DNA of 19,602 bases from a virus (IMGVR_UViG_648276650_000010:1-19602), one strand, 5' to 3'. Shown: positions 2,401 to 18,654, counted from the first letter of the stretch. Made by a program: numbers and translations. The notes: generated by a model not told the origin, from the sequence alone.

Positions 2401-3099
2401 TATTCACCTTTTTTTGTTGTTTCAGTCTAACTTTGTCTAACAGAGCAGGGTCGAACATCGATTCAACAGCTTTCTTGCGTTTAAGCTCCTGTTGCTCTTT
2501 CTCTTTTTCGATTTCCTCTTGAGACTTAAACACAGAATCTTTAATAAGCAGGTGATCTTTCATGTTGAGCTTTTTCCTATATTCTTTTGTAAGATTAGGA
2601 TTATTAGCTTCGATAGTGTGGACCAAACGTGCTTGATAGAAATCGTTATAGACAGGACCTTGAGGTTCAATAAACGAGTCGAAAAACCATAGTTCGTAAT
2701 ACATCATCACGGACATCTGTTGAATTTCATCGTTAGATAATCCGCGACGTAGCATTGTTCTATACTGAAATGATTTAGCCCAGTTCTGTCTTAGTTCTTT
2801 TCCAGAACGTCTGATTTCTTACTGAGAATACTGGCAGTAGAAACAGCACTAGCAAGAGTTGAACGAACAGTGGTATAAAGTTTCTGAACTTGAGCGATTT
2901 CTTTAAAAACAGGAGTTCCGTCTTCGTGTTGAATACAATTCAGAATCATTCGGTCGTTACGTTCTTCTGTGTTTTCATTTTTGAAATAGAATTCACCGAA
3001 TTCAGATACGGTCATAGGACGAGCATAGAATTTAAAGCCGTTGATTTCTACTGGTTCGCGAGAAGGCGAAAGACTTGCTAACATTTCATCGAAATTCAT
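2393..3099 (-). CDS. predicted G-T fusion chaperone made by -1 programmed ribosomal frameshift
   Basis: The -1 frame is open from a TAA at 2821-2819 down to the stop at 2395-2393, overlapping the last ~8 codons of the G frame. The T-frame stop overlaps the tape measure start by 8 nt. The frameshift itself is inferred; the slippery site is non-canonical. Confidence 0.5.
2791..3099 (-). CDS. tail assembly chaperone, gpG-like, 102 aa
   Basis: ATG at 3099-3097 with an AAGGGA SD-like element; stop TAA at 2793-2791. Sits directly upstream of the tape measure gene, and a -1 frame ORF overlaps its 3' end (classic G/GT arrangement). N-terminal segment VEINGFKFYARPMTVSEFGEF resembles the lambda gpG N-terminus as I recall it. 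Confidence 0.65.
   Translation of the reverse strand: MNFDEMLASLSPSREPVEINGFKFYARPMTVSEFGEFYFKNENTEERNDRMILNCIQHEDGTPVFKEIAQVQKLYTTVRSTLASAVSTASILSKKSDVLEKN
2794..2821 (-). promoter_or_regulatory. candidate -1 frameshift window; best heptamer GGAAAAG at 2797-2803
   Basis: This is the only stretch where the G frame and the T frame are both open. Minus-strand sequence is AGT AAG AAA TCA GAC GTT CTG GAA AAG AAC TAA. It contains the A-AAG lysine slippery motif but not a canonical X-XXY-YYZ heptamer. Confidence 0.35.
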
Positions 3100-3133
3100 T
3101 TTTGTTTCCCTTTGTTGAGTTTTCTTTTATTTA

Positions 3134-3162
3134 TGAAAAAGGGAGCGCGAGGCTCCCTTTTG
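3134..3162 (-). terminator. intrinsic terminator (bidirectional-looking) after the 105-aa gene
   Basis: Stem GGGAGC (3141-3146) pairs with GCTCCC (3152-3157) around a 5-nt loop. Flanked by AAAAA (3136-3140) and TTTT (3158-3161), so it is followed by a U-tract on either strand. Located between the stop at 3163 and the G start at 3099. Confidence 0.65.
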
Positions 3163-3480
3163 TTATTTCCATTGAAAGAAATATCCGTACATTCTGAAAC
3201 CTTTGTGGATATATTCAATCATTCCTAAGTTCTTCGCTTCGGTCTCAAAAAATGGACCTTGCAGTCGAACTGTCTGTCCTAATTTGAAATGACAATTAGG
3301 TTTTTTCTTCTGTGTTGAAACAATAAAAACGTTCTTATCGTTGAACAGATATTTTTTAATTCGCTTATCTTTGATGTGTTCGCAACCGTAAGGAACAGTC
3401 ATTGACTCGGGATTAATCTCGTTAACGTAGATGTCGGCAAGTTCGTCTAATCTGTAAGTATCAAAATCGTGAATGTTCAT
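3163..3480 (-). CDS. hypothetical protein, 105 aa
   Basis: ATG at 3480-3478 with an AGGAGA SD; stop TAA at 3165-3163; followed by a terminator. No recognisable motif. Confidence 0.55.
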   Translation of the reverse strand: MNIHDFDTYRLDELADIYVNEINPESMTVPYGCEHIKDKRIKKYLFNDKNVFIVSTQKKKPNCHFKLGQTVRLQGPFFETEAKNLGMIEYIHKGFRMYGYFFQWK

Positions 3481-3497
3481 TTGTTCTCCTTTTGACT

Positions 3498-4040
3498 TTA
3501 TTTAGTACCCGCAACACGCTTAACGGTTTTGAATATATCGTCAGAGATTTGATTCCATGAACCCAGAGTTTTTCTTCTGTGTTGATTTTTCTTGAATACA
3601 GCAATTAAACGACGGTCTTGCTTTTTAACGTTAGTTTTAATGAGGATCGTTCGAGTTACGCCATCTTTTTTTTGCTTGACAGCTTCAAGATTATTTCTTG
3701 ATTTCAAGTTAGGAATGTTACCGAATTTGTTCTTTGAACCTCTTACACCAGTTGGAACAAACTTGTTAATTCCTTTGTTATCATCAATTAACGGAGCAAG
3801 ATAATCAGCCTGCTTGTCTTTGATGAATATTCTATTTCGTGACCCGTTCTGATCGTATCTGAAACTGAAACCTACTGCGTTCTTAGTGAAATTAACTGGT
3901 CCATCGACTCGTCTGTTGATTTTTCTTTGCAACTCAACAGAAGCGAGTTTAGACGCTTTGGTTACTTTCTTACTGAACACGTCAGATTCTTTGATTCGCC
4001 ATTTTTCAAGGTCTTTCATAACATCTTTTGCTTTTGCCAT
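3498..4040 (-). CDS. hypothetical strongly basic (Lys/Arg-rich) protein, 180 aa
   Basis: ATG at 4040-4038 overlaps the stop of the upstream 65-aa ORF (TAATG coupling). Composition suggests nucleic-acid binding; too basic to be a typical tail tube protein. Function unknown. Confidence 0.6.
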   Translation of the reverse strand: MAKAKDVMKDLEKWRIKESDVFSKKVTKASKLASVELQRKINRRVDGPVNFTKNAVGFSFRYDQNGSRNRIFIKDKQADYLAPLIDDNKGINKFVPTGVRGSKNKFGNIPNLKSRNNLEAVKQKKDGVTRTILIKTNVKKQDRRLIAVFKKNQHRRKTLGSWNQISDDIFKTVKRVAGTK

Positions 4041-4237
4041 TAGTTCACTCCTGACATCAGAAGCGTCCCAAATGTTTTTATCTGTTCTTCGCTGATAAGA
4101 ATCATTTTAGGTGCTTTAATATCGAAAGCTTGCAGAACAGGAACAGCAACAGTGTTATAAGTTATAGTAACGAGAAATAGAACAATAAGATAATCTTTAG
4201 CGTGTTTTGCCAATGCTTGGAGATATTTCATTTTCAT
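4040..4237 (-). CDS. small membrane protein, 65 aa, one predicted TM helix
   Basis: ATG at 4237-4235 with a GGTG SD 5 nt upstream. Hydrophobic segment YLIVLFLVTITYNTVAVPVL. Overlaps the 3' end of the endonuclease gene by 41 nt and is coupled to the downstream 180-aa gene. Confidence 0.45.
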   Translation of the reverse strand: MKMKYLQALAKHAKDYLIVLFLVTITYNTVAVPVLQAFDIKAPKMILISEEQIKTFGTLLMSGVN

Positions 4238-4673
4238 ATTTCACCTTTATTTGGTTTGAGTAGACTTTTTCAAGCTCCTTTTTCGTTTTAAGGTTTGAAC
4301 CTGTAATAGCTTTCATCTCAGAAAGATTTTTTCGAGAGAACGCCTTCTTTAAATCAGGAATAAGTTGTGGATGCGTAGGATTGTCTGAGTAGTCTTTTTC
4401 AAGATACTGAACAAGATTCTTCAAAAACTCGATGTAGTCAATTTTCCCATCGAGACCCGAACGTTTAAACTGATGTTTTATTCTGCCCTCTAGGACGTTT
4501 GCTTGAGCGATTAATAATCCTCTGCATCTGCCTGCGTTAGAGCCTGTTAATATATGGTCATGGTCAAGATGGGCTTTATTAACTTCATGAATCTTTATGC
4601 CAGTTAAAGCACAAAGACCTTTTTGCTTTTGAAAGAGTTCTTGCTTATAAATCGGAATCTCTTTTCTTTTCAT
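4197..4673 (-). CDS. T4 endonuclease VII (gp49)-like nuclease, 158 aa, with degenerate zinc-binding site
   Basis: ATG at 4673-4671 with a GAGG SD; ATGA overlap with the upstream 94-aa gene. The segment HLDHDHILTGSNAGRCRGLLIAQANVLEGRIKHQFKRSGLDGKIDYIEFLKNLVQYLEKDY aligns closely with my recollection of T4 endo VII (HLDHDHELNGPKAGKVRGLLCNLCNAAEGQMKHKFNRSGL...). The catalytic Asp/His/Asn/Glu positions appear retained, but three of the four Cys Zn ligands are replaced (by T, I, A). Confidence 0.8.
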   Translation of the reverse strand: MKRKEIPIYKQELFQKQKGLCALTGIKIHEVNKAHLDHDHILTGSNAGRCRGLLIAQANVLEGRIKHQFKRSGLDGKIDYIEFLKNLVQYLEKDYSDNPTHPQLIPDLKKAFSRKNLSEMKAITGSNLKTKKELEKVYSNQIKVKYENEISPSIGKTR

Positions 4674-4954
4674 TTTCCTCTTAGAACTGCTAGGTCGATA
4701 TCTAGCTTTGCTGTTCTTCCTTCTAAATTCTTCAAATCAGATTTGACCTCTCGAAATTCATCCTGTTGTCGTGTTATATCGCTTATAAGCGAAGCATCTT
4801 TTGCGTCATTAACGGCTATGCTTTTTTCGATGTCTGAGAAACGTTTCTCAAGGTCAATTCGTTTTTCATTGTTTGATTTAATTTCGGCATAAACCCAAGC
4901 CAAGAAACCTCCTAGAGCACCCAAGATGGAAATGATCAGTGCTATATCGACCAT
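4670..4954 (-). CDS. membrane-anchored coiled-coil protein, 94 aa
   Basis: ATG at 4954-4952 with two AAGGAG-type elements upstream. N-terminal hydrophobic helix (IALIISILGALGGFLAWVYA) followed by a charged heptad-like region. Function unknown; i-spanin-like or exclusion-like topology. Confidence 0.6.
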   Translation of the reverse strand: MVDIALIISILGALGGFLAWVYAEIKSNNEKRIDLEKRFSDIEKSIAVNDAKDASLISDITRQQDEFREVKSDLKNLEGRTAKLDIDLAVLRGK

Positions 4955-4999
4955 CTTGAATCTCCTTTTTAAAAGACCTCCTTGTCTTTATTTAGAACG

Positions 5000-7900
5000 T
5001 TATTGTTGTTTACTGATAAAGTAAACTGCTCTTGCTGCGGTCGCATGATTCAAGTCAGCACCGTAACTCAAATCAACAGCTTGTCCCGCATAGATAATGC
5101 CTGTACCACCGTTTGAACCACTCATTGCACTGGTAACTGTTCTTACGATTTCTTGACCGTTCGACATATTAATCCATGCAGTTCCGTAGCCCCAAGCACC
5201 ACCGGAATAAGTTCTGCCTGAAATCGAAAGGTTTGGAATAGAAATTACTCTGTTCCAGTTAACAGCAGGAATATGAACTGTTGTCCACGGATCTATATGA
5301 CCCATTTTGATAACGTCACCTTCAATTCTGTCAGCGTATACAGTTCCTGTGAAATAACCTGAACCGCCTCTGATTTCACCTGCGAAATAACCAGAATCTG
5401 CTTGAATGTTACCTCTGATATTAACGTTTTGGAAAGAAGCCCAACCGTCTTTTCTGATTGTCCAACCTTGAGTACCACCGGAAGGGAACCAGTTATCAGA
5501 AGATATTTCATAAGCAATCTGTGCTGAACCGATCTGAGCATTACCAATTTTCGCAGTAGTAATCGCACCGTTTTCAATCTTCGCGTTGTTAATAGCACCG
5601 TTTTGAATCTTAGCGTTGTTAATAGAAGCATCTGCAATCTGTGCTGAACCGATAGAAGCATTACGAATCATTGCAGAATCCATATAAACTCTGTTATCAG
5701 CGACCATAAACGGAGCAACAGCACCCGCAGGAGTATTGTTATTCGTTATAGCGATTTTATCAGCGTTAAAAACAATACTAGACTGTTTTGAACCGTCAGG
5801 ATTCTTATTAGCCAGCATACTGATACCAGCAACAACACCGTCGGCATTAGTCTGAACTGCCCATTTGCTATTAATCGTTCCTGTTAAGTCGTCAACGCTT
5901 GCTTTTGATTCTTGACTAACTGTTGCAATAGCTGTGTTTGTTTCAGCTTTCAATTGATTAATTGAACTTGCGGTTGCTTGTCTATCATCAGCTTGAGTTT
6001 TTTCAACTTTCGTAATAGCCGAGTTAAGTTTTCCATCAAAGTTAGATTCTTGAATACTGATAGCCTGATTGATAGCGCCATTAGTTTCATTAGTAATCTG
6101 AGTATGAAGTTCGGTGTTTTTCGTCGTGATAGTCTGATTTAATTCAGTAGTAACTTTTTGCTCGGATGCTGTAACTTTCGTATCAGTGTATTTGTTAGCG
6201 AGGTCTAATGCTTCATCGATAGCACCATCAACACGTTTATCCAAATCAAGCAAATCGTTTAACTGTTCTTTCATATCGTCAGTCCACGGAATATCCCATT
6301 TCATATCGATAAACTTCGATTCTGACCAAGTAATCTGGTCTTGTCCGAATACGTCATACCAAGCTGAACGAACATAGAATTGACCATCTTCTAATGGAAA
6401 ATTATCTAAGAACGGACTTGAACTTGAATAAACGTGAACAATTTCATTAAAACTCTGGTCTTTCGCAATATGAACGATTGTGCCTTTGAAGTCAGGAACT
6501 TCAGGCTTATTATCGCGTGGGTCATTCCAAGAGCACATCAGCATTCCAGGACCATTCGAAGCTGTGAAACCTTGAATAGCAGGAGCTTGATTGTTCTTAA
6601 CAGTAATAACAGCAGGATCTGACTTCATACCAGCGTGACCGTATGCAGTAACAGAAACTTTCAATTCACGACTCAGACCATTACCCAAGTTCATATTAAA
6701 GTCATATACAAAACCTAAGTCTTTAGTCTTGTAAATTACAGGACGCTGACCTTCAATTTTGATTTCGTAATATTGAAAAACTTCACCGAATGTCTGTAAC
6801 GTGTCGTCAACATAGAATTTCTGTGCGCTCTGGTCGTCCCAGGCGAATTCAAATTGAGTCTTGTTAGTGGTGTATTGATTTTCAACTGCGTTCACTAGGT
6901 GCAGTCCTGTAACGACTGGTAAGTTATACATAACCTCAGGGTTAACGTTATTGACATAAACCCAATCTGAACGATACACAACACCAGAAGCACAAACACG
7001 AATATCAAATTTCTGATTAGGGTCAAGACTCATAATCAAGAAATAATCGCCTGATGTGAAACCTGCTTGAATCCAAGAGTTCTTACCAGCAAGACTATAC
7101 TGAATATAATAACCTGCGCGATTATAATCAGGTTCAGACGTCCATTGAACTTTCAGAGTTCTTCCTAAAGCTGTTTCAGCAACTGCTTTAACTGTCAGAT
7201 TCTTAGGAGCAATCAGAACAGATTTATTAGGAATGTTGCTTCCTGTGTTATCAGGGTCTTTCGCGTAGTCAAGATTGGTATAAACTTCTTCGATATATTC
7301 AGAAGCAGTAATAGTAACGATACCAGCAGCACCTTTATTCATCGAACGATCGATATTAGTAATACGCCATAATGAATTCACAAGTTCCAGTTCAGAGAAA
7401 TTAACTCTGATAACATCCCAGACCTGTGCGGTATAAGCATCAGCAGTTGAAAAACTAATAACTTGCTTTAACAGAGATTTGTTACGTTCGATTGAAGCAA
7501 TTTTATCCAACTGAGATTTTGATTTCACGAATCTGTAACTGATATCTTTAGCGATAATACGTTTATCTTTCGCGATTGTTCCATCATTTGTTACGTCAGA
7601 CGGATAACGCAGAACTTGGTCAGAATAGTCAATCGACGGATCTTGATATTTCACGTTCAGAGTATTGTAATAATTCTCAGAACCGCCATCGTTTAAGCTA
7701 ACAGTACCAGCGTTAATATTATCTTCGTTGAAGTCATATTGAACAACATCAGGTCCATCGATTCTGCATGTTACTTTACCGAAAGTCTCTGTGATAATAC
7801 CGTTAAATGCACCTGCAAGCTGAGTTAAGTTTTCTTTGAATGAACCGTTCGGGTCAGTTGCACCATCAGAAAATAAACTGTTCAGTTTTGCATATCGAGC

Positions 7901-8689
7901 AGCTTCTTTAAAACTATCAAGGTCGATTTTATCAATCTGAATTCCAAGACCGTATCTATCATTTGTTAGATAATCAACAATCTGACTCGGACCGTTGTTC
8001 GAGGAAACGCGTTCTCCTGTGTTCAGATCTGTAATCAAACGTCCTCTAACGTCAACAGATACTTGACTGTTAGGTTGCAGGATATCAGCTTGGTTTTGAA
8101 GGTCTGAGTTACGTTTGCGCATAACAACACAACAAGCAGCGATGTTATTACCAGTAGCAGAATCAGGCCAGCCAGCATCTGAATTTCCTAGATATTTCTG
8201 AGCAAGAGTAAAAACGTGACCGTATGGCTTACCAGTTGAGAATTCAACTTCAACATATTGCTGATATTCAGCAGCGATTGAACCTTTCGGAAGAACACCG
8301 TCTTTATAAACGCCATCAAGTAAGATTTTCTGATTATCCATATAAAGGTTTTTGAAGCTATCAACTTCACCTTCACAGATTGCAAAGATCTGAACCAAAT
8401 ATGTCGTATCAACGCCAACAGCTTTCCAAACGTTAATCGTACCTGTACGCTGTTCACCATAGATAATAGGAATAACACTTGATGGATCTGACGTTGTTCC
8501 TAATGTCGTTGCTGTGTCTGTGCTGTTAAATCGGGGAACGTTCTGCGCCATCTGAGTTGACATCAAAGCAGAAACAGCAGCAACAGCGACACCAATACCA
8601 ATTGCCAAAGCAAGAGCAGCACCCGCAGCGTAAGCAGCAGCAGCCGCGGAAGCACCTGCGATAATTGCACCAATAGCTACAATAGCCAT
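5000..8689 (-). CDS. lambda J-like tail tip / host specificity protein, 1229 aa, with hydrophobic N-terminal extension
   Basis: ATG at 8689-8687 overlaps the upstream stop (TAATG). The region PIIYGEQRTGTINVWK...YLVQIFAICEGEV matches the conserved N-terminal motif of J-type tip proteins; the C-terminal region (FMVADNRVYMDSAMIRNASIG..., NIRGNIQADSGYFAGEIRGG...) resembles the lambda J C-terminal receptor-binding region as I recall it. Confidence 0.75.
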   Translation of the reverse strand: MAIVAIGAIIAGASAAAAAYAAGAALALAIGIGVAVAAVSALMSTQMAQNVPRFNSTDTATTLGTTSDPSSVIPIIYGEQRTGTINVWKAVGVDTTYLVQIFAICEGEVDSFKNLYMDNQKILLDGVYKDGVLPKGSIAAEYQQYVEVEFSTGKPYGHVFTLAQKYLGNSDAGWPDSATGNNIAACCVVMRKRNSDLQNQADILQPNSQVSVDVRGRLITDLNTGERVSSNNGPSQIVDYLTNDRYGLGIQIDKIDLDSFKEAARYAKLNSLFSDGATDPNGSFKENLTQLAGAFNGIITETFGKVTCRIDGPDVVQYDFNEDNINAGTVSLNDGGSENYYNTLNVKYQDPSIDYSDQVLRYPSDVTNDGTIAKDKRIIAKDISYRFVKSKSQLDKIASIERNKSLLKQVISFSTADAYTAQVWDVIRVNFSELELVNSLWRITNIDRSMNKGAAGIVTITASEYIEEVYTNLDYAKDPDNTGSNIPNKSVLIAPKNLTVKAVAETALGRTLKVQWTSEPDYNRAGYYIQYSLAGKNSWIQAGFTSGDYFLIMSLDPNQKFDIRVCASGVVYRSDWVYVNNVNPEVMYNLPVVTGLHLVNAVENQYTTNKTQFEFAWDDQSAQKFYVDDTLQTFGEVFQYYEIKIEGQRPVIYKTKDLGFVYDFNMNLGNGLSRELKVSVTAYGHAGMKSDPAVITVKNNQAPAIQGFTASNGPGMLMCSWNDPRDNKPEVPDFKGTIVHIAKDQSFNEIVHVYSSSSPFLDNFPLEDGQFYVRSAWYDVFGQDQITWSESKFIDMKWDIPWTDDMKEQLNDLLDLDKRVDGAIDEALDLANKYTDTKVTASEQKVTTELNQTITTKNTELHTQITNETNGAINQAISIQESNFDGKLNSAITKVEKTQADDRQATASSINQLKAETNTAIATVSQESKASVDDLTGTINSKWAVQTNADGVVAGISMLANKNPDGSKQSSIVFNADKIAITNNNTPAGAVAPFMVADNRVYMDSAMIRNASIGSAQIADASINNAKIQNGAINNAKIENGAITTAKIGNAQIGSAQIAYEISSDNWFPSGGTQGWTIRKDGWASFQNVNIRGNIQADSGYFAGEIRGGSGYFTGTVYADRIEGDVIKMGHIDPWTTVHIPAVNWNRVISIPNLSISGRTYSGGAWGYGTAWINMSNGQEIVRTVTSAMSGSNGGTGIIYAGQAVDLSYGADLNHATAARAVYFISKQQ
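5514..5653 (-). repeat. intragenic tandem and direct repeats in the J-like gene
   Basis: Exact 20-nt direct repeat gcaatctgtgctgaaccgat at 5514-5533 and 5634-5653 (120 nt apart, in frame), with 30-nt-period near-repeats at 5561-5620 between them. Encodes a periodic motif (IGSAQIA ... NNAKIQNGAINNAKIENGAITTAKIGNAQ). Confidence 0.8.
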
Positions 8690-9105
8690 TATTTTCTCCT
8701 GTTAAAAATTAATTCAAAATTAAAATCGTTGACGTTTATCAGTTGATATTTATTTTCATGTTCAACTAATGCTCTATTATTAAAAACGATAGATGCAACG
8801 TAATAGACACGGTTTTTATGTTTTTTCTTAATTAAGATAACCGAGCCTGTTTCTATAGTTTCTGATTTCTCAAGATGCGTTTCACACGCTTCGAGAACGT
8901 TATTAAAACCAGTTAGCTCTTTGCAAATCTTGAGACCTTCAGGAATACTCGTGTATTTGTCTTTTAATTTGTCTGTGTATTCAGTAGCACAAACAAGGTC
9001 GATATATTCAGCAACAAGGATATTACAGTCGTTTTGACCGAAAACGTGTTGCTGATTGATATAGCGGTTAAGTAATTTTGATAAGTCAGCTTGAAATTTA
9101 AACAT
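8689..9105 (-). CDS. hypothetical Cys/His-containing protein, 138 aa, translationally coupled to the J-like gene
   Basis: ATG at 9105-9103 with a GAGGTGA SD; stop overlaps the J start. Motif GQNDCNILVAEY plus downstream His residues could fit a papain-like fold (speculative). Position suggests a tail tip assembly role. Confidence 0.5.
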   Translation of the reverse strand: MFKFQADLSKLLNRYINQQHVFGQNDCNILVAEYIDLVCATEYTDKLKDKYTSIPEGLKICKELTGFNNVLEACETHLEKSETIETGSVILIKKKHKNRVYYVASIVFNNRALVEHENKYQLINVNDFNFELIFNRRK

Positions 9106-9132
9106 GTTTCACCTCTGACTTTATTTAGAGCC

Positions 9133-9161
9133 AAAAAAAGACCCCTTGCGGAGTCTTTTTA
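9133..9161 (-). terminator. intrinsic terminator after the 158-aa gene
   Basis: On the minus strand: GACUCC-GCAA-GGGGUC (6-bp stem with one U-G wobble, GNRA loop) followed by seven U. Stem at 9140-9155, A-run at 9133-9139 on plus. Begins 7 nt after the stop at 9163. Confidence 0.7.
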
Positions 9162-9162
9162 A

Positions 9163-9639
9163 TTAATCACTTGATGTCAAATCAACAACACCAGAAACAA
9201 CAGGACCACCATCAACACTCAGTGTCATTGTCAGACCTTGAACTTCTGATTCACCGCCATTATGAACAGCGCTTGACAAGAAGCCGTTATAAACTTTTGC
9301 AACACCCAGTTTTTTAGTAGCATCAATCCAATAAACGATTTTAAACTGACCACGTTTACCATCTTCCGCAAGCTTAATCAGAACATCATGAACGCTTTCT
9401 GGAATATAGTTAACGGTCAAGTCGATATCAGGAACAGAGCCACGACCAACCAGTTTACGGGAGTATTTGTGAGAGAAGTTAGGAGCTGTAATAACTTCGC
9501 GTTCAATACCCGTAGAAGGGAATGCACCAGTTTCAGGAATTTCAACAAACTTTTCTGAATTCAGATCGGTGTTTGCAATTTCTGAGTTATAGAACACACT
9601 GACGTAAGAGCCAGCAAAAATATCAAATTTGTCTGCCAT
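9163..9639 (-). CDS. hypothetical acidic beta-rich protein, 158 aa, probable virion structural protein
   Basis: ATG at 9639-9637 with an AGGAAA SD; stop TAA at 9165-9163. No TM segment or signal peptide. Bracketed by terminator-like hairpins on both sides (stand-alone transcription unit). Fold and function not assignable from sequence alone. Confidence 0.55.
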   Translation of the reverse strand: MADKFDIFAGSYVSVFYNSEIANTDLNSEKFVEIPETGAFPSTGIEREVITAPNFSHKYSRKLVGRGSVPDIDLTVNYIPESVHDVLIKLAEDGKRGQFKIVYWIDATKKLGVAKVYNGFLSSAVHNGGESEVQGLTMTLSVDGGPVVSGVVDLTSSD

Positions 9640-9680
9640 TTTTAATTTCCTATTTGAGTTAATATAGTTTATTTAGCAAA

Positions 9681-9699
9681 GGGGATTTCTCCCCTTTTT
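9681..9699. terminator. terminator-like hairpin directly after the tail fiber stop
   Basis: GGGGA (9681-9685) pairs with TCCCC (9690-9694) around a 4-nt loop. On plus it is followed by TTTTT (9695-9699); on the minus strand only by UUU, so minus-strand termination is probably partial. Confidence 0.5.
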
Positions 9700-9700
9700 G

Positions 9701-12700
9701 TTATTTAGCTTCAAGTTCTTTAACGCGAGCACTTAATTCCTTGATAGCATTAACCAGCAACGCGTTTACAGCAGCAGAGTTAACACCAAGAATTTCGTCA
9801 GGTCCGAAAGAACTAACAGCTTCTGGTAATACTTCTTTCAGTTCTTGAGCAATAATACCTGCTTCACGAACTTCGAATGAATATTCAGTTTTGACTAAAT
9901 CAGATTTCTTATCGTATACGTAACCAGTAAGTTTCTCGACTTTATCAACTGCGTTTTCAATTTCTTCAAAGTTCGATTTCAGACGTTTATCAGAAGTGCT
10001 AACCCATTGGATCGCATTTGCTGTTCCATTACCGAGGAATAGATAGTCTGCACCACCAATGTGAAGTGCAGCCTCGGGAGCAGAACTACCCGGATTATAA
10101 ATGTCCATCGCAGCACCGTATTCTGTGCCCCAATGAACATGTTTCCAGATATTAATACATTTATCACGAGTCTGAGCTTCAACAATCATTCCCGCAGGAC
10201 GATCACGCCACGCTGACCACTGCGGCCAACCGTCAACGACACCTTGAATCATCGCATTGCTTGCCCCGGTTCTAACGTTTCCAACATAAACACCGCGAGA
10301 CTCATTATGGGTGTTAATCGTAATTGACCGATCAATTGTCAAACCAGCTGTGTTAAAGGTTGCGATTTGAATACCATTAGTAAAAATGCTTAAGTTTCCG
10401 TCCGTAACTTGTCGAATACCTGTATCGTTATCACCAAACGCGATTGAGTTTCCACCTAGTACGTTGTCCGTGTTAATACCAAAACTTGTTAAACGATTTG
10501 TTTCAACAGAAGGAGTATTAATTTTTCCAGGAACAGCAAAACGACCATCGATATCAAATTCATAATTAGCCATTTTACCGAACGTCGATTCTTCTTTCGT
10601 CCCAACACGAAGAATTCCTTTGCCCCATGAATTAGCTGGTCCTCTAATAGTTCCTAATTCAACAACAGTAGAGAATCCGTGTCCTACGGAAACAGAGTTC
10701 ATCGAATATCCGGGATAATAATCACTTTCACCAGCAACTGCTCCGAAGTTAATCTGCATAGGAGCATTTTGTCTCCATTGATTAGCGTAAGCATGATCAT
10801 TGGTTGCTGCCCATCTTGCACCATCAATTTGAATTGTATTATGCTGAATATCCATCGCGGTATTAGTACCAGTCTGAACCGTCACGGATCCGTTAGTTCT
10901 AAGAGTAACACCAGATGACGTAGAGAAATCATTTCTCATATTCTGAGACCAGACAATATCGAGATTCTCACTTGTCTTGCCAAGAATCCAGGTATTATTG
11001 CGACCGTCCATATTGCCAGACATATAACTTGCCTGATTCGACGCAGGAATATTCAACTGAATAGCATTAGATTCGCCGTTGACAGAAACACCACTTGCAA
11101 GATTCAATCGACCATTGGTGTTTAATGAACCCATCCAATATTCAGGAGTATCACCATGAAACCAACATATAGAGTTATCCAGCCTATCGTCAGGATGATT
11201 AGCCATTGCCAACTCATGATAAATGGATCCAGCACCAACGGCTCTAACTTTTCTTAAATGATTTGATTGTTGCTCAGGAGTGTTCCAGTCGGGTAAGCTT
11301 TCCGAGTCATACCATCCGTAAGGCTTATTATTATAAATCGTTTTATAGAAACTTGCAGGGCCAGCAACACCAAGACCTTCTTTAGTATCAATATAAGTTC
11401 TGCCTGAACCTCTCAGATAATGATTATATTTTCCACCATTAACTAATCCGAAATAAGTCGTGGCGTCACCAATGTTATTACCGTCGGTTGTCGTATCGAT
11501 ATTAATTAATGAATAACCTTCAGGAGCCATCAGATTCGAATCACCATCATCACTTCTGAAACGGAAATGAGTTTTTCTATTAAAGTAGTTTTCAGATCCT
11601 GCAATAGAAGCTGTTACAACGTTATTTGAATAGAAGTTTAACCATCCGTCTTCTCTCCATTTAAAACCAGTGTCGGAATCACCAATCGCGATAGAGTTTA
11701 AACCCAGTGAATTTCCAACGGCAAAGTTGCTTGCAACGGACATTAAAGGAGTTGTTACTGCATCAGTGATTCTAGCTTGACCTGAAATATCAATTGACAT
11801 TCCTCTGCCTGTTTTTCCCCAAGTCATGGTCATTAGATCTAATGCGTCGGTTCCTTCGTTAGCATCACGACGAAATAACAGTCGATCATCCGTATCCGTT
11901 GCGTATGCAATTTGATGAATAGTCTTTGAAGTTCTGCCGTGGTTTTCAATACTCAGAACATCACCGTTATTACCAGCAGGTGTAACTTTCAAAGTTCCTG
12001 CGTATACATTACCAGCAGCATGAACAGAAGGAACAGTTAAGTCGCCAGTCATCGTGTCGCCAGCTTTATTAACTTTGGTGTCAATCATGTCTTTCAGAGT
12101 CTGATTATCAACAGTCAAACGGTCATTAACTGCTTTAATCTTTTCGTCAGCATCAGCTTTATTCGCATCAACTTTCGTATTAATAGCCGTGTCGTTCTGG
12201 TCAACTTTTGAATTCAGATTATCAACGCGAGTGTTAATAGCAGCGTCGTTAGCATCAACTTTCTGTTCGAGTTTCGTCAGGTCAGCACTTGAACCTGTTT
12301 GAACTTTGCTGATTTCAGAATCAACGTAATCTTTACGCGTAGCGCTATCAGGAGCAACAGGAGCAGCAGGCAAAGATAACTGACCATTACCGTTAAGCAC
12401 GAAGTCAGAACTCTCTCCTGTACCTTTTCCTTTCGCTACCGTAACACGAAGTTCACCTTTAGAGTCTGTCTGAGCAGGAGAACTAATACGTGCTTTTGCT
12501 TTGTCGTGTTCATCAGCAAAAACAATATCGCTTTTATCAAGATTTTTTAAAGTCAGATTAGAATCGGATTCAATATCACTTGCTTTAATTTTTCCAGTAA
12601 AGGTCTGACCGCCTTCAACAACAGCATCAGCACCATTACCGATGTTAATAACAGCGTCACCGAATTTAGTAAAAATCTTTTTATCGGCTAAGTTAATAGC

Positions 12701-12784
12701 GATTTCACCATCAAGCATGTTTTTCGCTTCTGGCTTTCTTCCGGCGACGTCTGTTCTATAATGTTTAACTTTATTATTTGCCAT
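9701..12784 (-). CDS. tail fiber protein, 1027 aa, with C-terminal intramolecular chaperone (peptidase S74-type) domain
   Basis: ATG at 12784-12782. N-terminal fibrous repeats (VDxNDxAINTxVD) and a DTMTGDLTV motif typical of phage fibers. C-terminal WVSTS-DKRLKSNFEEIE...YVYDKK...EAGIIAQELKEVLPEAV...NAIKELSARVKELE matches the auto-cleaving chaperone domain seen in endosialidase-type tailspikes and L-shaped fibers. Confidence 0.8.
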   Translation of the reverse strand: MANNKVKHYRTDVAGRKPEAKNMLDGEIAINLADKKIFTKFGDAVINIGNGADAVVEGGQTFTGKIKASDIESDSNLTLKNLDKSDIVFADEHDKAKARISSPAQTDSKGELRVTVAKGKGTGESSDFVLNGNGQLSLPAAPVAPDSATRKDYVDSEISKVQTGSSADLTKLEQKVDANDAAINTRVDNLNSKVDQNDTAINTKVDANKADADEKIKAVNDRLTVDNQTLKDMIDTKVNKAGDTMTGDLTVPSVHAAGNVYAGTLKVTPAGNNGDVLSIENHGRTSKTIHQIAYATDTDDRLLFRRDANEGTDALDLMTMTWGKTGRGMSIDISGQARITDAVTTPLMSVASNFAVGNSLGLNSIAIGDSDTGFKWREDGWLNFYSNNVVTASIAGSENYFNRKTHFRFRSDDGDSNLMAPEGYSLINIDTTTDGNNIGDATTYFGLVNGGKYNHYLRGSGRTYIDTKEGLGVAGPASFYKTIYNNKPYGWYDSESLPDWNTPEQQSNHLRKVRAVGAGSIYHELAMANHPDDRLDNSICWFHGDTPEYWMGSLNTNGRLNLASGVSVNGESNAIQLNIPASNQASYMSGNMDGRNNTWILGKTSENLDIVWSQNMRNDFSTSSGVTLRTNGSVTVQTGTNTAMDIQHNTIQIDGARWAATNDHAYANQWRQNAPMQINFGAVAGESDYYPGYSMNSVSVGHGFSTVVELGTIRGPANSWGKGILRVGTKEESTFGKMANYEFDIDGRFAVPGKINTPSVETNRLTSFGINTDNVLGGNSIAFGDNDTGIRQVTDGNLSIFTNGIQIATFNTAGLTIDRSITINTHNESRGVYVGNVRTGASNAMIQGVVDGWPQWSAWRDRPAGMIVEAQTRDKCINIWKHVHWGTEYGAAMDIYNPGSSAPEAALHIGGADYLFLGNGTANAIQWVSTSDKRLKSNFEEIENAVDKVEKLTGYVYDKKSDLVKTEYSFEVREAGIIAQELKEVLPEAVSSFGPDEILGVNSAAVNALLVNAIKELSARVKELEAK

Positions 12785-12796
12785 TTTCTTTATCCG

Positions 12797-13822
12797 TTAA
12801 AATACTCCTGCGTCTAAGGTTTCTCCTAACGCTACACAATTAATCTCTAATGGCGTTGGTTTATTACTTGGAGAATAGACTTCTTTGCCTTTGACCTTGA
12901 CAGAAGTTGAGTTAATTTCATTACTATTTAGAGCCAAGATTTCACCTTGTGGCGCAGAAATCTTTTTACGAACGTTCAGATATTCCTGAATAGTCAAAGA
13001 TCCTTTGAGTTCTCCACCAGTAATAGGCAAAGCATTAATATCTTCAGGAGTTGGACGTTCAAGTTCTGTATAGACTTTGACCCACGGAGATTCAGTAACA
13101 GTTTCACCGCTTTGTTGTTTGTTTCTGATTCTGATGCTTGGATTACCGACTGACGAACCAATAAGCTCCCAACCTTGACCATCAGGATGCTGAATAGCCA
13201 TAGCAGACGTGCCAGAGTTATAAGGGTTATCGCTGTTTGTTGCATCGACTGTTACACATCTGTTACCAGTTAATAATCCTAAGTCTTTAACGCCTGCGAT
13301 TTCTTCTGTACCAGCACCAATACCATAATCGCCAACGTTTAACGGAACTGAGAATTCAGCAAAACCTGTAAACAACTGACCATCAGGAGAAAGATTAAAA
13401 GTTGTTGTAACGACTGAGTTAGCCGAACCTGATGTTTCTTTCTTCGTTACATAAGCATTAAAAATATGATAAAGACCAGCATCATTATCTTTCTTTGTTT
13501 CTCCATCGATAACATAAAGACTTCTGAATCTAAGGAGTTTCTTTTCCATAAGAGCTTCATCAAGCAACTGATAAACTGGGTCAGAACTGTCTTCAAATAA
13601 GCTTATTGAAGTGTCGTTAATTGTTACGTCACCTGAAAGTTTCGTTGTGAAATCGGTTCTGTAATCTTCTAGTGTCTGAACTTCTTTTCTAAATCCGATA
13701 ACAGGGAATGCAGCCAGTTTATCAGTGCTTACATAACCTGGGTCGTTATATCCTGGGATTTCAACGATTAGCGGATTAACTGAAACTCTGACGTTATTTC
13801 CTACAAAAATATCGTTTGTCAT
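12797..13822 (-). CDS. major tail protein, gpV-like, with C-terminal Ig-like extension, 341 aa
   Basis: ATG at 13822-13820; stop TAA at 12799-12797. Position is right after the gpU-like gene. The segment NDTSISLFEDSSDPVYQLLDEA...LLRFRSLYVIDG resembles the lambda V pattern [23 protein letters not shown]...AYKIRFPNG as I recall it; C-terminal ~100 aa is beta-rich and Ig-like. Confidence 0.6.
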   Translation of the reverse strand: MTNDIFVGNNVRVSVNPLIVEIPGYNDPGYVSTDKLAAFPVIGFRKEVQTLEDYRTDFTTKLSGDVTINDTSISLFEDSSDPVYQLLDEALMEKKLLRFRSLYVIDGETKKDNDAGLYHIFNAYVTKKETSGSANSVVTTTFNLSPDGQLFTGFAEFSVPLNVGDYGIGAGTEEIAGVKDLGLLTGNRCVTVDATNSDNPYNSGTSAMAIQHPDGQGWELIGSSVGNPSIRIRNKQQSGETVTESPWVKVYTELERPTPEDINALPITGGELKGSLTIQEYLNVRKKISAPQGEILALNSNEINSTSVKVKGKEVYSPSNKPTPLEINCVALGETLDAGVF

Positions 13823-13829
13823 TTTAGTC

Positions 13830-14228
13830 TCACATTAAGTATTCGAAAGTTAAAATTATTTGTGCGCTAACATGACCATTTGATGCTTCACTATCATAAT
13901 CAGTGAAGCTCGAACTTGGATAAATCTTATCGATTTTAAATGGGATAAGTTTTTCATGATTAGCTTTAATAGAAATTAAGTCGTAAACGGCTTTGTGAAC
14001 GCCTGTTTCGCTTTTCTCTGAGAAAATATCAATCGTAATACTAAGAACACTTGCAAGTTTCGATTGCAAACCGATTCGCGTATATTCTTCTGTCATTCCT
14101 GGAATCATTACTTGAACAGGTTCTTTAACACCAGTTGTGAAAGCGTTTTTGACGTATTTCAGATTAAGTTCTTTAACGATTATTTCTTCCAGAGCGCGTT
14201 TAATTCCTAAACGTGGCAGATTAGTCAT
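13830..14228 (-). CDS. tail terminator protein, gpU-like, 133 aa
   Basis: I place the start at the internal ATG at 14228-14226, which overlaps the upstream stop by 8 nt; the ORF-track start at 14306 would overlap the upstream gene by 86 nt. C-terminus DYDSEASNGHVSAQIILTFEYLM resembles the lambda gpU C-terminus (DY..DDAG..SADLTYVITYEM) as recalled. Confidence 0.6.
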   Translation of the reverse strand: MTNLPRLGIKRALEEIIVKELNLKYVKNAFTTGVKEPVQVMIPGMTEEYTRIGLQSKLASVLSITIDIFSEKSETGVHKAVYDLISIKANHEKLIPFKIDKIYPSSSFTDYDSEASNGHVSAQIILTFEYLM

Positions 14229-14517
14229 AGAATGATGTCTCCTGTTCGCCTTTAAATGCCAGATAACAATTAGCAAGTCCTGAACCATCATTAACAAGAT
14301 ACGCAATGGTATACAGAATCTCGTTTAATAGAACTTCATCTTCTTGCTTAACTTTATTGATATCAGCGGTTATATAGATTGTCTCGCTTACTTGTCCGTT
14401 ATCGTTGTTAATCTCAATTTCAACAATACCGAGTTCATCAGAATCGTTAATTTTGATTTTCTGTCCGAAACGAGTTAAGAAAGACTGTTTTTGTTTTTCT
14501 GAATATGGAAAAATCAT
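14221..14517 (-). CDS. head-tail joining (neck) protein, 98 aa
   Basis: ATG at 14517-14515 with an AAGGAGA SD; first gene after the capsid terminator. Small and acidic, in the position of a head completion/connector protein. No specific family assignable. Confidence 0.5.
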   Translation of the reverse strand: MIFPYSEKQKQSFLTRFGQKIKINDSDELGIVEIEINNDNGQVSETIYITADINKVKQEDEVLLNEILYTIAYLVNDGSGLANCYLAFKGEQETSFYD

Positions 14518-14552
14518 GTTGTCTCCTTTTTATTATATTTAGTCCAGAAACG

Positions 14553-14576
14553 AAAAAAGGACTCCCGAAGGAGTCC
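14553..14576 (-). terminator. strong intrinsic terminator after the major capsid gene
   Basis: On the minus strand: GGACUCC-UUCG-GGAGUCC (perfect 7-bp stem, UUCG tetraloop; stem 14559-14576) followed by UUUUUU (14553-14558 on plus). Lies about 50 nt downstream of the capsid stop. Confidence 0.85.
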
Positions 14577-14597
14577 TCTGATTATTCAGCAGTTTCA

Positions 14598-14628: not shown

Positions 14629-16533
14629 TTAGGCTTGTTTTTCGTGCAGGAACAGACGATCATCAGCACAAACTTTCCAATCGATATCAGCCCAAACGCG
14701 AGGAACGATAGCGCCTTTGTTACGGTAAGTTGTGTCGTCTAGGTCAAGAGCAAGACCTTCCCACTCAGCTACGGTTACAGCAGAGAAGTCACCAGAGATA
14801 ACCTGACCTTCTTTAACAAGACCGGAACCGATAACATCATGTCCGCCCAGTTTGTTCAGGTCGTCGATGATATAACCAGCAACACCAGCGTCACGCAGAG
14901 TGGTTTTCAAATCACCTTCAAGAGCAGCAGCCATCAAATATTTGAACTTGTCCATTGCTACGCCGTCGCCTTTAGCTTTAGCAGCTTCAACAACGAATTC
15001 TTTGTAGGTCATTCCCATCTGTTTTGCTACTAACTGAGCAACGATAGACTGAGGAGCTTTTGCGTCGGTAATAGAACCGAACATCAGACCTTCCAGTTTA
15101 GCGCGTGAGAAATTCACGATATGGTCAGAAATGAACGCACCCAGATTAGGCAGAGTCAACAGAGCTTGACGAGAAATCGGGTTACCACCAGTAAATGTCT
15201 TAGGCATAAACTGAATGTTTTCGAATTTGCTTTCGCCTTCTGGAGATTCACCGTTTTCATCAACGAAACCGAATGCATCAACACTTGATTTTGTCTGCTT
15301 AGGAACAGAAATCGGAGTAGTCAGACCAGTCAGGAAGTTAACTCCCAGCTTATCAGCAACAGTGTCTTTCAACAGCATTTCAACGAATGAATCATAACGC
15401 TGAACAGTTTCTTGTACTGCGGAAACAGTTGATACAGTGTTAATAGCGCGTTTGCCTTGCAGAGCACTAACTGGCATATAGATACCTTGAGAAACGTTAG
15501 CACCGCGCATCAGACGCTTACGGGACATTTCTTGAGTATATTCAGCAGCAGCACCGCGAACAGCTTTACCATTCATCATAGAGCGAACAGCATCGCCAAG
15601 GTCGAATTTATTTTCCAGAGTTTGTTTAGTATCTTTAGTCATGTTGCGAATCACCGTTGCAGATTTATTAGGTTTAATAGAGCGTTTGAATTGACGTGCG
15701 GTCATGCCTTTAGCGATAGCGCTTGCAACGTCTTTCTGTGCTACTTTGTAGCGTTGTGCGATTTCAAGAATTTCTTCCGCTTCTTCTTCGCGTTCTTCTT
15801 CTGTCAGTTCGTCACCAGCAGGAACAGCAGCAGGAGCGTCATCAGTTTTTTCAACAGCAGAATCACCAGCGTTTTCATTTTCAACGACTACTTCTTCCAG
15901 AATTTCTTCACGCTTTGCACGATCTTCATCGGACAGCATTTCAATTTCATCGATAGTCATTTCTGCCAGTTCATCTTTAGTCATTTCATCAATACGTTTC
16001 ATTCGAGTACCTTTGTTAAGTTTGTTTGTTGTATCTGTATTTAGTAGTCTTCCCAAACCGACTTTATCGTCAGCAGGAACAGTGACGAAAGAAATTTCAT
16101 ATGGTGCCCATTTCGTAACAATAAGATTGTCGCCTTCTAAGTGATATTCATTAATGTCATATCCGAAAGAGATTTTACTAATTGTTCCTTCTTGAACTTT
16201 TGCACCGATTTCTTTAGCTAATTCACCGTGTTGACTGAATTGGACTTTTGCTCGTCCTATTTTGTCTTCATCGATTCGAACAGAATCAGGAATAACGATT
16301 CCCAAGTGTTTATCAAAATCATGGTTAAACAGCAAAGCAGCACCGTTATTAATTCGGGTCAAGTCAGCGTTATGTGAGCCGTCATGAACGAGAATTTCAT
16401 TAACAGTAATGTTTTGACCGTATTCATCCTGAATCTGTCTTTCAACAGGAGTTTCAGAACTGAACGCAATTTCAAAAACACCATCAACAGAATCAATACC
16501 CTGAACTGTGTAATCGCGCTTAAGTTTTAGCAT
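14629..16533 (-). CDS. fused prohead protease / scaffold-like linker / HK97-fold major capsid protein, 634 aa
   Basis: ATG at 16533-16531 with a GAGGA SD. Residues ~1-177 carry the prohead protease signature (ISFGYDINEYHLEGDNLIVTKWAPYEISFVTVPAD, as in HK97-type U35/S78 proteases). Residues ~178-270 are acidic and helical (DELTEEEREEEAEEILE). The C-terminal ~360 aa look like an HK97-type capsid protein. An in-frame internal ATG with SD lies at 16002-16000 (M178). Confidence 0.8.
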   Translation of the reverse strand: MLKLKRDYTVQGIDSVDGVFEIAFSSETPVERQIQDEYGQNITVNEILVHDGSHNADLTRINNGAALLFNHDFDKHLGIVIPDSVRIDEDKIGRAKVQFSQHGELAKEIGAKVQEGTISKISFGYDINEYHLEGDNLIVTKWAPYEISFVTVPADDKVGLGRLLNTDTTNKLNKGTRMKRIDEMTKDELAEMTIDEIEMLSDEDRAKREEILEEVVVENENAGDSAVEKTDDAPAAVPAGDELTEEEREEEAEEILEIAQRYKVAQKDVASAIAKGMTARQFKRSIKPNKSATVIRNMTKDTKQTLENKFDLGDAVRSMMNGKAVRGAAAEYTQEMSRKRLMRGANVSQGIYMPVSALQGKRAINTVSTVSAVQETVQRYDSFVEMLLKDTVADKLGVNFLTGLTTPISVPKQTKSSVDAFGFVDENGESPEGESKFENIQFMPKTFTGGNPISRQALLTLPNLGAFISDHIVNFSRAKLEGLMFGSITDAKAPQSIVAQLVAKQMGMTYKEFVVEAAKAKGDGVAMDKFKYLMAAALEGDLKTTLRDAGVAGYIIDDLNKLGGHDVIGSGLVKEGQVISGDFSAVTVAEWEGLALDLDDTTYRNKGAIVPRVWADIDWKVCADDRLFLHEKQA

Positions 16534-16548
16534 TACCAGTCCTCTGTT

Positions 16549-16580
16549 GGAGCGTCTTTCGACGCTCTTTGTTTTTCTGA
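16549..16580. promoter_or_regulatory. stable stem-loop in the portal-capsid intergenic region, terminator-like only in plus orientation
   Basis: GAGCGTC (16550-16556), loop TTTC, GACGCTC (16561-16567), followed on plus by TTTGTTTTT. On the minus-strand mRNA it forms a GAAA-loop hairpin 17 nt upstream of the capsid SD with no U-tract after it. Confidence 0.45.
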
Positions 16581-16592
16581 ATGTATTTAGTG

Positions 16593-18143: not shown

Positions 18144-18634
18144 GATGGATTCGTGAACCTCGCTTTAATAGTAACAATCGGAGATTTACCGTTTGCCATT
18201 TGTTCTGACTTAATCAGATTTGCTAAGTTAGCTAAAAGTCGTTTTCGAGCCATAAGCAGCGAATCAAGCGTTTCATAAACGAATGATTTACCGTTAATAC
18301 TCATTTGTTGAATAGCTTCTTCGTTACTTGTCAGACGATACTGAATAACTGTATCGATATCGTTAATCATTTCTCTGAGTTGTTCTCTTTTCGTTTTTGA
18401 AACGAATGGTGATTTCACTTTGATAATGCTGTTACTGATAAGCGCACCTTCATAGAGAACAACAACAGAAAAAGTTCCTTCGATAAAATCTGATGTGTCC
18501 ACCGAGATATTCGCTGGACAATCAGTTTGAGAAAACAATTTAGTTTCAGTTGAGCCTATGGAGACTGTTGCACCTTCAGGATTATAAACAGCGAGTTTTT
18601 CACCGATGTAAATTTCTGAATTTGATTTTTGCAT
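18140..18634 (-). CDS. gpW-like head-tail joining protein with ~85-aa N-terminal extension, 164 aa
   Basis: ATG at 18634-18632 with a GGAGAA SD; lies between terminase and portal as lambda W does. The C-terminal ~75 aa (INGKSFVYETLDSLLMARKRLLANLANL...) resemble lambda gpW ([23 protein letters not shown]...) as recalled. The N-terminal beta-rich half has no counterpart in 68-aa gpW. Confidence 0.55.
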   Translation of the reverse strand: MQKSNSEIYIGEKLAVYNPEGATVSIGSTETKLFSQTDCPANISVDTSDFIEGTFSVVVLYEGALISNSIIKVKSPFVSKTKREQLREMINDIDTVIQYRLTSNEEAIQQMSINGKSFVYETLDSLLMARKRLLANLANLIKSEQMANGKSPIVTIKARFTNPS

Positions 18635-18654
18635 TGAGTTCTCCTTTCTTATAT

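Follow-up and report, generated by a model that had tools for sequence, protein, structure and literature searches.

Candidate late promoters of the gp55 type in a siphovirus-like Escherichia coli island without a recognizable gp55

The 19,602-nt viral stretch IMGVR_UViG_648276650_000010 (referred to at its full length as the window) is part of a siphovirus-like element that is found integrated in Escherichia coli chromosomes, and its virion genes are preceded by a recurrent box with the core TAAATA. We consider it very probable that the box serves as a working late-promoter element of one sort or another. It has the form of the -10-like element that the late sigma factor gp55 reads in T4 and related phages, and the same box stands before late genes of gp55-encoding phages, but no gp55 or other cognate factor was found in the element. 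The explanation that we favour, with no more than moderate confidence, is that the boxes are gp55-type late promoters read by the machinery of a helper phage, and that the element is a satellite building its own virions. A preliminary description of the window had proposed the box as a candidate late-promoter element of the T4 kind; the proposal has come through every sequence-level test run here, promoter function being the predicted role.

TAAATA occurs 12 times on the coding (minus) strand of the window, on which all of its genes lie. Dinucleotide shuffles give 10.6 ± 3.3 copies, so the total is ordinary, but the placement is not: nine of the 12 fall in the 0-60 nt that precede a start codon, where 0.62 ± 0.78 would be expected (maximum 4 in 300 shuffles), and the antisense strand carries none, against an expectation of 6.5 ± 2.4. 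The longer form CTAAATA is found 9 times (expected 2.3 ± 1.5). When each 60-nt upstream segment was shuffled separately, which keeps the local AT-richness, 0.87 ± 0.91 copies were obtained compared with 8 observed, and none of 2000 shuffles reached 8. Motif discovery upstream of genes, a check suggested in the preliminary description, placed TAAATA first in an unbiased ranking of 6-mers, above the ribosome-binding site AGGAGA. The same description had cautioned that the motif might partly reflect TAA stop codons and AT-rich spacers. Two copies do overlap stop codons (3499-3505 and 9702-9708), but only the one at 3499-3505 looks functional, and the caveat therefore fails to explain the pattern; it is rejected by the shuffles, by the strand asymmetry and by the conservation described below. 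Over the whole element, boxes precede the units encoding the small and large terminase subunits (TerS and TerL), head, tail, fibre, Dit and lysozyme, and none stands before the recombinase, TIR, retron or GntR-like genes.

Fourteen sites from the whole element were aligned, with positions that assume T4 numbering. TAAATA is invariant; position -12 is C in eight sites and A in six, never G or T; any base occurs at -13, and T occupies -14 in 9 of the 14. Downstream, 12 of 14 sites have A at -4; A and T predominate from -5 to +3, and the sequence remains A-rich to about +3. By type, one site is an exact TATAAATA, five are NATAAATA and eight are NCTAAATA. No -35 element, TG extension, operator-like site or activator site is conserved, information being at most 0.68 bits at any position upstream of -14 in the 14 sites. 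A sigma-70 consensus scan had no match on the boxes and returned fewer sites than it did in shuffled sequence; a sigma-70 promoter was rejected on this result and on the lack of a conserved TTGACA-like -35 element.

In T4, gp55 acts with gp33 and the gp45 clamp to read late promoters of the form TATAAATA at -13 to -6, which have no -35 element and an AT-rich downstream region (PMC2988020); gp55 has a deep pocket into which it flips the adenine at -12 (PMC7892883). Like these promoters, the sites of the element consist of a single -10-like box, its TAAATA core spanning about -11 to -6, followed by A/T-rich sequence and unaccompanied by a -35 element, and they occur as many separate copies before virion genes, on either strand, often after terminators and with short leaders. 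However, their carrier is a 34-kb integrated siphovirus-like island and no T4-like myovirus, and no gp55, gp33 or gp45 was detected in it. The fit to T4 put forward in the preliminary description thus holds for the gp55-type core and the missing -35 element, but not for the setting, in which there is no late sigma of the element's own, and not for position -12, where most copies have the C of the Aeh1/Kuttervirus flavour, CTAAATA.

For the Aeromonas phage Aeh1, which has a divergent gp55, the predicted late consensus is CTAAATA starting from -12 (PMC1524935). According to the 2011 paper on CBA120, the late motif of ViI-like phages had not been identified (PMC3184105). In the genome of this Kuttervirus coliphage (NC_016570), which encodes homologues of gp55, gp33 and gp45, we found (A)CTAAATA 25-50 nt upstream of ~10 late genes, as a sequence observation and not as mapped promoters; before three tailspike/fibre genes the box is extended to CTAAATACCCC. 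Aeh1 and CBA120 therefore share the 7-mer CTAAATA with the element, and CBA120 also shares its range of box-to-gene spacings and its host, E. coli. Both phages differ from the element in having a gp55 homologue of their own, and the CBA120 tailspike promoters continue as CTAAATACCCC whereas the continuation in the element is A-rich (CTAAATAAAGTCA). The rV5-type motif TggTAaAAtA was also considered and rejected: it is a different box, and rV5 lacks gp55 (PMC3606486).

The boxes are conserved among relatives. We compared the window's own element (L010; the record L003 is the same element beyond the window) with two related islands, L009 (87% identical) and L011 (76%). At least 13 of the 14 sites are found at orthologous positions in L011 despite differing flanks, and boxes occupy the same positions in L009, in L011, in IMG/VR relatives and in contig 1 of the phage record DCP80, again with different flanks. 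Between L010 and L011 the synonymous divergence (dS) is ~0.5-2.8, with one gene not computable; because synonymous sites are saturated, neutral sequence would have been scrambled. The ratio of nonsynonymous to synonymous divergence (dN/dS) is 0.06-0.36 in the same comparison, and with such values the elements appear to be functional and anciently diverged, not decaying remnants. The IMG/VR relatives keep the same arrangement of boxes with lineage-specific bases at -13/-12: [A/T]CTAAATA in L018 and L019, gTAATAAATA or TTAAATA in L020, L021 and L022, and tttC(A)TAAATA past terminators in L024, a relative of 49% GC with a capsid identity of only 40%.

The phage database contained a single relative, namely the first 30.7 kb (30,710 nt) of 'Escherichia phage DCP80' (PQ671644.1). 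This 141-kb record, filed as a Gaprivervirus 'complete genome', consists of contigs joined across 22 runs of N, and its T4-like fragments carry duplicated genes (three rIIA and two primase copies). These features and the separate siphovirus-like contig led us to reject a real 141-kb hybrid of a T4-like phage and a siphovirus. Contig 1 itself is siphovirus-like and, as it is free of N and its ends overlap by ~110 nt, is a complete genome of ~30.6 kb. Almost all of its units, a cluster of tiny genes among them, are preceded by an exact TATAAATA, and the extension GTTATAAATAAA(A/T)GTAT resembles the gp22 late promoter GTTATAAATAAATGTAT of the T4-like phage that was sequenced with it. Contig 1 has neither the GntR-like gene nor the recombinase/integrase of the islands. 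Gene modules are rearranged between the two: in the island, unlike in contig 1, Dit and hub are inverted and placed beside the lysozyme gene, and the block of chaperone and tape measure comes after that of the tail tip. Every moved block keeps its own TAAATA box.

The preliminary description had suggested looking for a gp55-like late sigma factor. Searches with phmmer (--max; T4-like and CBA120 queries) against 4793 six-frame open reading frame (ORF) fragments of family members found nothing for gp55, gp33 or gp45, and the positive control for this search gave E = 2.5e-8; neither the element nor its relatives thus yielded a homologue of the three. PHROG and Pfam scans of the window and of the non-structural island genes identified only virion, packaging, lysozyme, endonuclease VII, recombinase, GntR-like and defence genes, and no replication gene or sigma factor was found by these scans among the island genes or in other members. 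What the E. coli islands have in common with DCP80 contig 1 is confined to genes for structural proteins, packaging, lysozyme and endonuclease VII. Because the two share no regulator gene, no conserved regulator encoded by the element could read the shared box.

Within the window, where all features lie on the minus strand, the boxes were mapped in the direction of transcription. The exact TATAAATA noted previously before the head-tail joining gene (164 aa, 18140-18634) is present, at 18652-18659 rather than 18653-18660, 17 nt upstream of the ATG; the same place holds TATAAATA in L009 and ACTAAATA in L011. A ACTAAATA box at 16584-16591, 50 nt upstream of the gene for a 634-aa prohead protease-major capsid fusion (14629-16533), has counterparts at the same place in L009, L011, L018, L020, L022 and DCP80, with a -13/-12 flavour that varies by lineage. 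The capsid gene is followed by the terminator GGACTCC-UUCG-GGAGUCC + U6 (14553-14577, ΔG -16.1 kcal/mol) and, 9 nt past its U-run, by a ACTAAATA box (14536-14543) that lies 18 nt upstream of the 98-aa gene (14221-14517). Over 30 nt (14548-14577, AGGACTCCTTCGGGAGTCCTTTTTTCGTTT) this terminator is identical to the one after soc in the T4-like phage YUEEL01 and its relatives. The next box, TCTAAATA at 12925-12932, falls within the 341-aa gene towards its 3' end; it precedes the fibre gene (9701-12784) by 140 nt and is a candidate fibre promoter, and its counterpart in L020 is 64 nt upstream of the next gene there. Directly past the terminator that follows the fibre gene (9677-9694, ΔG -12.4 kcal/mol) comes a GCTAAATA box (9670-9677), 30 nt upstream of the 158-aa tail-tube gene (9163-9639), which is itself followed by a terminator (9133-9155, ΔG -13.9 kcal/mol, U7).

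Further along, a TCTAAATA box at 9122-9129 stands 16 nt upstream of the DUF6950 gene (8689-9105), behind which lies the tail-tip gene (5000-8689); the sequence ggctcTAAATAaagtcagaggtg at this box is identical in L009 and L011. Another TCTAAATA box (4989-4996) is 34 nt upstream of the 94-aa gene (4670-4954), which the endonuclease VII gene (4197-4673) follows, and a ACTAAATA box (3499-3506), which shares its 3' end with the stop of the 180-aa gene, is 18 nt upstream of the 105-aa gene (3163-3480). These three sites coincide with the copies of the 13-mer CTAAATAAAGTCA by which the motif was originally recognized: as described, two copies are exact (3493-3505 and 9116-9128) and a third, at 4983-4995, differs at one base; they lie close before the 105-, 138- and 94-aa genes (12, 10 and 28 nt from their respective ATGs). 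The terminator after the 105-aa gene (3136-3157, ΔG -14.8 kcal/mol) leads directly into a CATAAATA box at 3128-3135, 28 nt upstream of the 102-aa chaperone gene (2791-3099), a copy that had been placed at 3131-3139. This and the other additional copies listed previously do exist, at positions shifted by 1-3 nt. L009 and L011 both keep the boxes before the 98-aa, fibre, tail-tube, 94-aa, 105-aa and chaperone genes. Four boxes of the window are located 1-13 nt past stable terminator hairpins with U-runs (ΔG -12.4 to -16.1 kcal/mol). Two further matches are of another kind. The GCTAAATA at 9702-9709 overlaps the end of the fibre gene, both final codons and stop; its conservation is that of coding sequence, and it is probably no promoter, since a transcript from there would run at once into the fibre terminator. 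The AATAAATA at 8747-8754, inside the DUF6950 gene and 57 nt upstream of the tail-tip gene, is kept in neither L009 nor L011 and is probably a chance copy.

Besides the fibre-gene box, one more copy is new relative to the preliminary list: a ACTAAATA at 16038-16045 inside the protease-capsid gene, over codons 164-166 (Leu-Asn-Thr), which we regard as a candidate promoter. It is found at the same codon position and in the same phase in all close relatives. The codon at -12 to -10 is CTA (Leu) in CTAAATA-type elements and ATA (Ile) in elements of the AATAAATA type (L020) and the TATAAATA type (DCP80), whose other boxes carry A at -12; these rare codons appear to be held at the nucleotide level. 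In the window an in-frame ATG with a ribosome site (16000-16002) follows 35 nt past the box. Across relatives the ribosome site and in-frame ATG lie 32-65 nt past it, and the Shine-Dalgarno sequence and ATG are kept in L009, L011, L018, L020, L022 and DCP80. The arrangement would fit an internal promoter making a nested, protease-less scaffold/capsid product of 457 aa. The capsid leader, between the upstream box and the ribosome site, contains the hairpin GAGCGTC-GAAA-GACGCTC (16550-16567, ~17 nt past the box; ΔG -12.6 kcal/mol, z = -5.9). In six relatives no pair is disrupted, and five of the seven have undergone compensatory changes; a U-run is absent in the window's element and present in L020 and L022. 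The hairpin may stabilize the mRNA as a 5' hairpin or act as an attenuator.

On these findings we propose that the box serves as the -10-like element in late promoters of the type read by gp55 (T4 superfamily), and that each virion, packaging and lysis transcription unit has its own box, often as part of a terminator-promoter cassette, with the internal capsid-gene box driving the nested protease-less product. The boxes would be read, and transcription would start from them, when host RNA polymerase core is joined by the late sigma of a superinfecting gp55-encoding phage, so that the virion genes of the island would be turned on only in the late phase of the helper infection. The helper would supply the sigma, since no gp55-like sigma, gp33, gp45 or replication genes were found in the element; replication, too, would probably be borrowed. 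The eight boxes with C at -12 indicate a gp55 other than that of T4, and the CTAAATA flavour points to an Aeh1- or Kuttervirus-like one, while the AATAAATA or exact TATAAATA boxes of sister lineages would fit T4-like helpers. A long association with T4-superfamily phages would also fit the kinship of the fibre and endonuclease VII, whose nearest relatives are Straboviridae proteins, and the soc-type terminator of 30 nt. The assembly of DCP80 contig 1, a complete relative, from one sample with a T4-like phage is a circumstantial pointer to helper dependence.

Several points weigh against this proposal. If transcription starts 6 nt past the box, several predicted leaders are only 11-13 nt long. 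The strict Tequatrovirus late promoter has A at -12, where 8 of the 14 sites have C, and T4 itself may read such boxes poorly; a Kuttervirus- or Aeh1-like helper, in turn, is only a sequence match. During T4 infection Alc blocks transcription of cytosine-containing DNA and the host DNA is degraded, and for this reason a cytosine-containing island would need prior replication or protection. The co-occurrence of contig 1 with a T4-like phage in DCP80 could represent two independent phages in one lysate, or contamination, and a very divergent sigma or activator among the small ORFs could have been missed by the searches. Satellites, moreover, normally lack a full virion gene set, and this element keeps one. 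It is because of the short leaders, the sequence-based choice of helper, the obstacle posed by Alc, the mixed DCP80 record and the chance of a hidden regulator that our confidence in the full helper-dependent scheme stays moderate.

If there is such a regulator, the boxes would be late promoters read by an unrecognized factor of the element, either a divergent small sigma or activator or the GntR-like protein, and the island would be a self-sufficient temperate phage whose likeness to gp55 promoters is convergent or inherited. Many small ORFs of the element have no assigned function, fast-evolving regulators escape sequence searches, and an integrase with a complete virion and packaging set under purifying selection is what a normal prophage has; small sigma-like late activators do occur in other temperate phages (RinA family, PMC3152322). 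Yet the E. coli islands and DCP80 contig 1 use the same box without a regulator in common, and contig 1 has neither the GntR-like gene nor the recombinase. A self-sufficient phage is also hard to reconcile with the failure to find replication genes in any member, and an activator with the lack of a conserved operator-like or upstream site beside the boxes. Many separate promoter-terminator cassettes would in addition be atypical of temperate siphoviruses, which usually have one late operon. We consider a factor of the element's own unlikely, though it has to be taken seriously.

Recognition by host sigma-70 or sigma-S, or a role of the motif in RNA as an A/U-rich translation enhancer or processing site, seems improbable to us. 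The box is AT-rich and near ribosome-binding sites, in some cases just 16-18 nt from the ATG, and its C-T-A start recalls the preference of sigma-S for C at -13. However, only three of the six bases of TAAATA agree with TATAAT, and the key T at its end is missing, which adds to the negative sigma-70 scan and the missing -35 and TG elements, and constitutive recognition by a host sigma would have virion genes and lysozyme expressed in the lysogen, which would be harmful. An RNA-level role leaves unexplained why the hexamer is invariant while its flanks vary freely, why some copies lie 50 and 140 nt ahead of genes, why one copy precedes the leader hairpin and why -13/-12 switch lineage-wide. As for a functionless by-product of AT-rich spacers and TAA stops, the ordinary total count and the two stop-codon overlaps are what could be said for it; against the locally shuffled segments, the empty antisense strand, the retention of sites across saturated divergence and the presence of the box in the 49% GC relative L024, it can practically be dismissed.

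The remaining gene content of the window is that of a virion and packaging module. PHROG scans identified the C-terminal half of a gpA-type large terminase (18655-19554), the head-tail joining protein, the portal (16593-18143), the protease-capsid fusion, the fibre (1027 aa, with a T4 gp37-like part and an S74 chaperone), the tail tube protein and a J-like tail tip of 1229 aa. In transcription order, the 98-aa gene is followed by a gene for a ~132-aa protein and this by the gene for the tube-like protein of 341 aa, before the fibre. A 158-aa ORF with a TTG start at 13830-14306 is, according to public annotations, more likely a 132-aa gene with its ATG at 14228, overlapping the end of the 98-aa gene. 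The endonuclease VII is of the T4 type; genes for 65-aa and 180-aa proteins lie between it and the 105-aa gene, and one for a 120-aa protein between the tail assembly chaperone and the tape measure (799 aa, 1-2400).

The capsid protein sequence is found in identical form on bacterial chromosomes of ~5 Mb, and the window is 100% identical to E. coli 2021CK-01361. A relative of the window's element is present in 6 of 5426 complete E. coli genomes; in three of the six it was delimited as an island of ~34 kb, with 39% GC in flanks of 50.5% GC, always between ybiT and ldtB. The copy in CP107720 carries two IS5 (ISEc68) insertions, one in the terminase gene and one in the tail-tip gene. Outside the window the island encodes a serine recombinase at its ybiT end, a divergently transcribed Dit/hub pair, a T4-type lysozyme, the small terminase and, adjoining the terminase gene, the GntR-like regulator. 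The element as a whole therefore has a complete virion set of capsid, portal, protease, tail tube, tape measure, Dit, hub, tip, fibre and terminase. Variable cargo of the defence type is present as well, namely a TIR-domain protein and a retron Ec67-family reverse transcriptase/endonuclease; it is located at 6027-6923 and 8289-10058 of L010 and differs among L009, L010 and L011. A non-coding, repeat-rich stretch of ~1 kb between the 59-aa and 246-aa genes (L003 3982-4998, corresponding to L010 ~11230-12350) contains three mini-hairpins of the GCGCGAAGCGC type, other repeats and TAAATA boxes on both strands. All three islands keep a gap here, a similar repeat-rich region of 1.2 kb lies ahead of the terminase genes in DCP80 contig 1, and the stretch may be an origin or a packaging site. 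Rfam families had no match in the window or L003. No plasmid or phage-plasmid relative was found above 29% capsid identity, and the GTDB species representatives contained only two capsid relatives, both distant.

The element can be compared with P4 (which depends on Ogr of P2), the Staphylococcus aureus pathogenicity islands (SaPIs) and the phage-inducible chromosomal island-like elements (PLE, of ICP1). Like them, it is an integrated mobile island with its own recombinase and defence cargo (the TIR protein and the retron Ec67-family reverse transcriptase), no replication module or late regulator was detected in it by sequence search, and its late genes are apparently wired to a transcription signal of a helper. 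Of the functions for autonomous growth, then, those sought by sequence search are missing, as in a satellite. Those elements, however, take the virion proteins of their helper, whereas this one keeps a complete head, tail, fibre, terminase and lysozyme and would borrow transcription and probably replication. Phage-inducible chromosomal islands (PICIs) have a characteristic regulatory and primase-replication module, and capsid-forming PICIs have head genes without tail genes; the element differs from both in having tail genes and no primase or replication gene that we could find. Virophages of giant viruses, such as Sputnik, have their own capsid and carry genes with the late-promoter motif of the helper, which are expressed by the helper's machinery. 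The likeness to virophages is one of logic and not of homology, since the domain of life, the virion type and the transcription apparatus all differ.

More tentatively still, the window may belong to a family of satellites that are siphovirus-like, live in the manner of virophages and depend on phages of the T4 superfamily (Straboviridae and Ackermannviridae). Its members would have neither a late sigma nor replication machinery and would form complete virions from morphogenesis genes wired to the gp55, gp33 and gp45 of a helper, with the -13/-12 flavour (CTAAATA, AATAAATA or TATAAATA) tuned to the gp55 of that helper, and would exist either integrated, like the ybiT-ldtB islands of E. coli with their TIR and retron cargo, or free, as in the 30.6-kb genome from DCP80. 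We regard this as possible and short of probable. The gp55-type promoter class is known, as are satellites wired to the late regulators of their helpers (P4/P2, SaPIs, PLE); what appears to be new is the presence of putative gp55-type promoters in an integrated siphovirus-like element without gp55. Our literature search found no description of gp55-type promoters in satellites or prophages, part of its results being swamped by primer and microsatellite matches, nor any description of a full-virion satellite, of T4 satellites or of such a prophage context for retron Ec67.

To our knowledge, gp55-type late promoters have been regarded as a T4-related hallmark, whose carriers always have the matching sigma. 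A signal of this type without the sigma, in an unrelated siphovirus-like island, would indicate a new parasitic strategy. Even the more modest view, of a late promoter whatever its reader, provides a precise promoter and terminator map of the element. If the helper-dependent scheme is true, the element borrows late transcription and probably replication and builds its own particle, the reverse of known phage satellites. This would explain why such 'intact prophages' may never respond to the usual induction, would offer a possible mechanism of interference with T4 or Kuttervirus, and would make pairs of helper and satellite predictable from promoter flavour.

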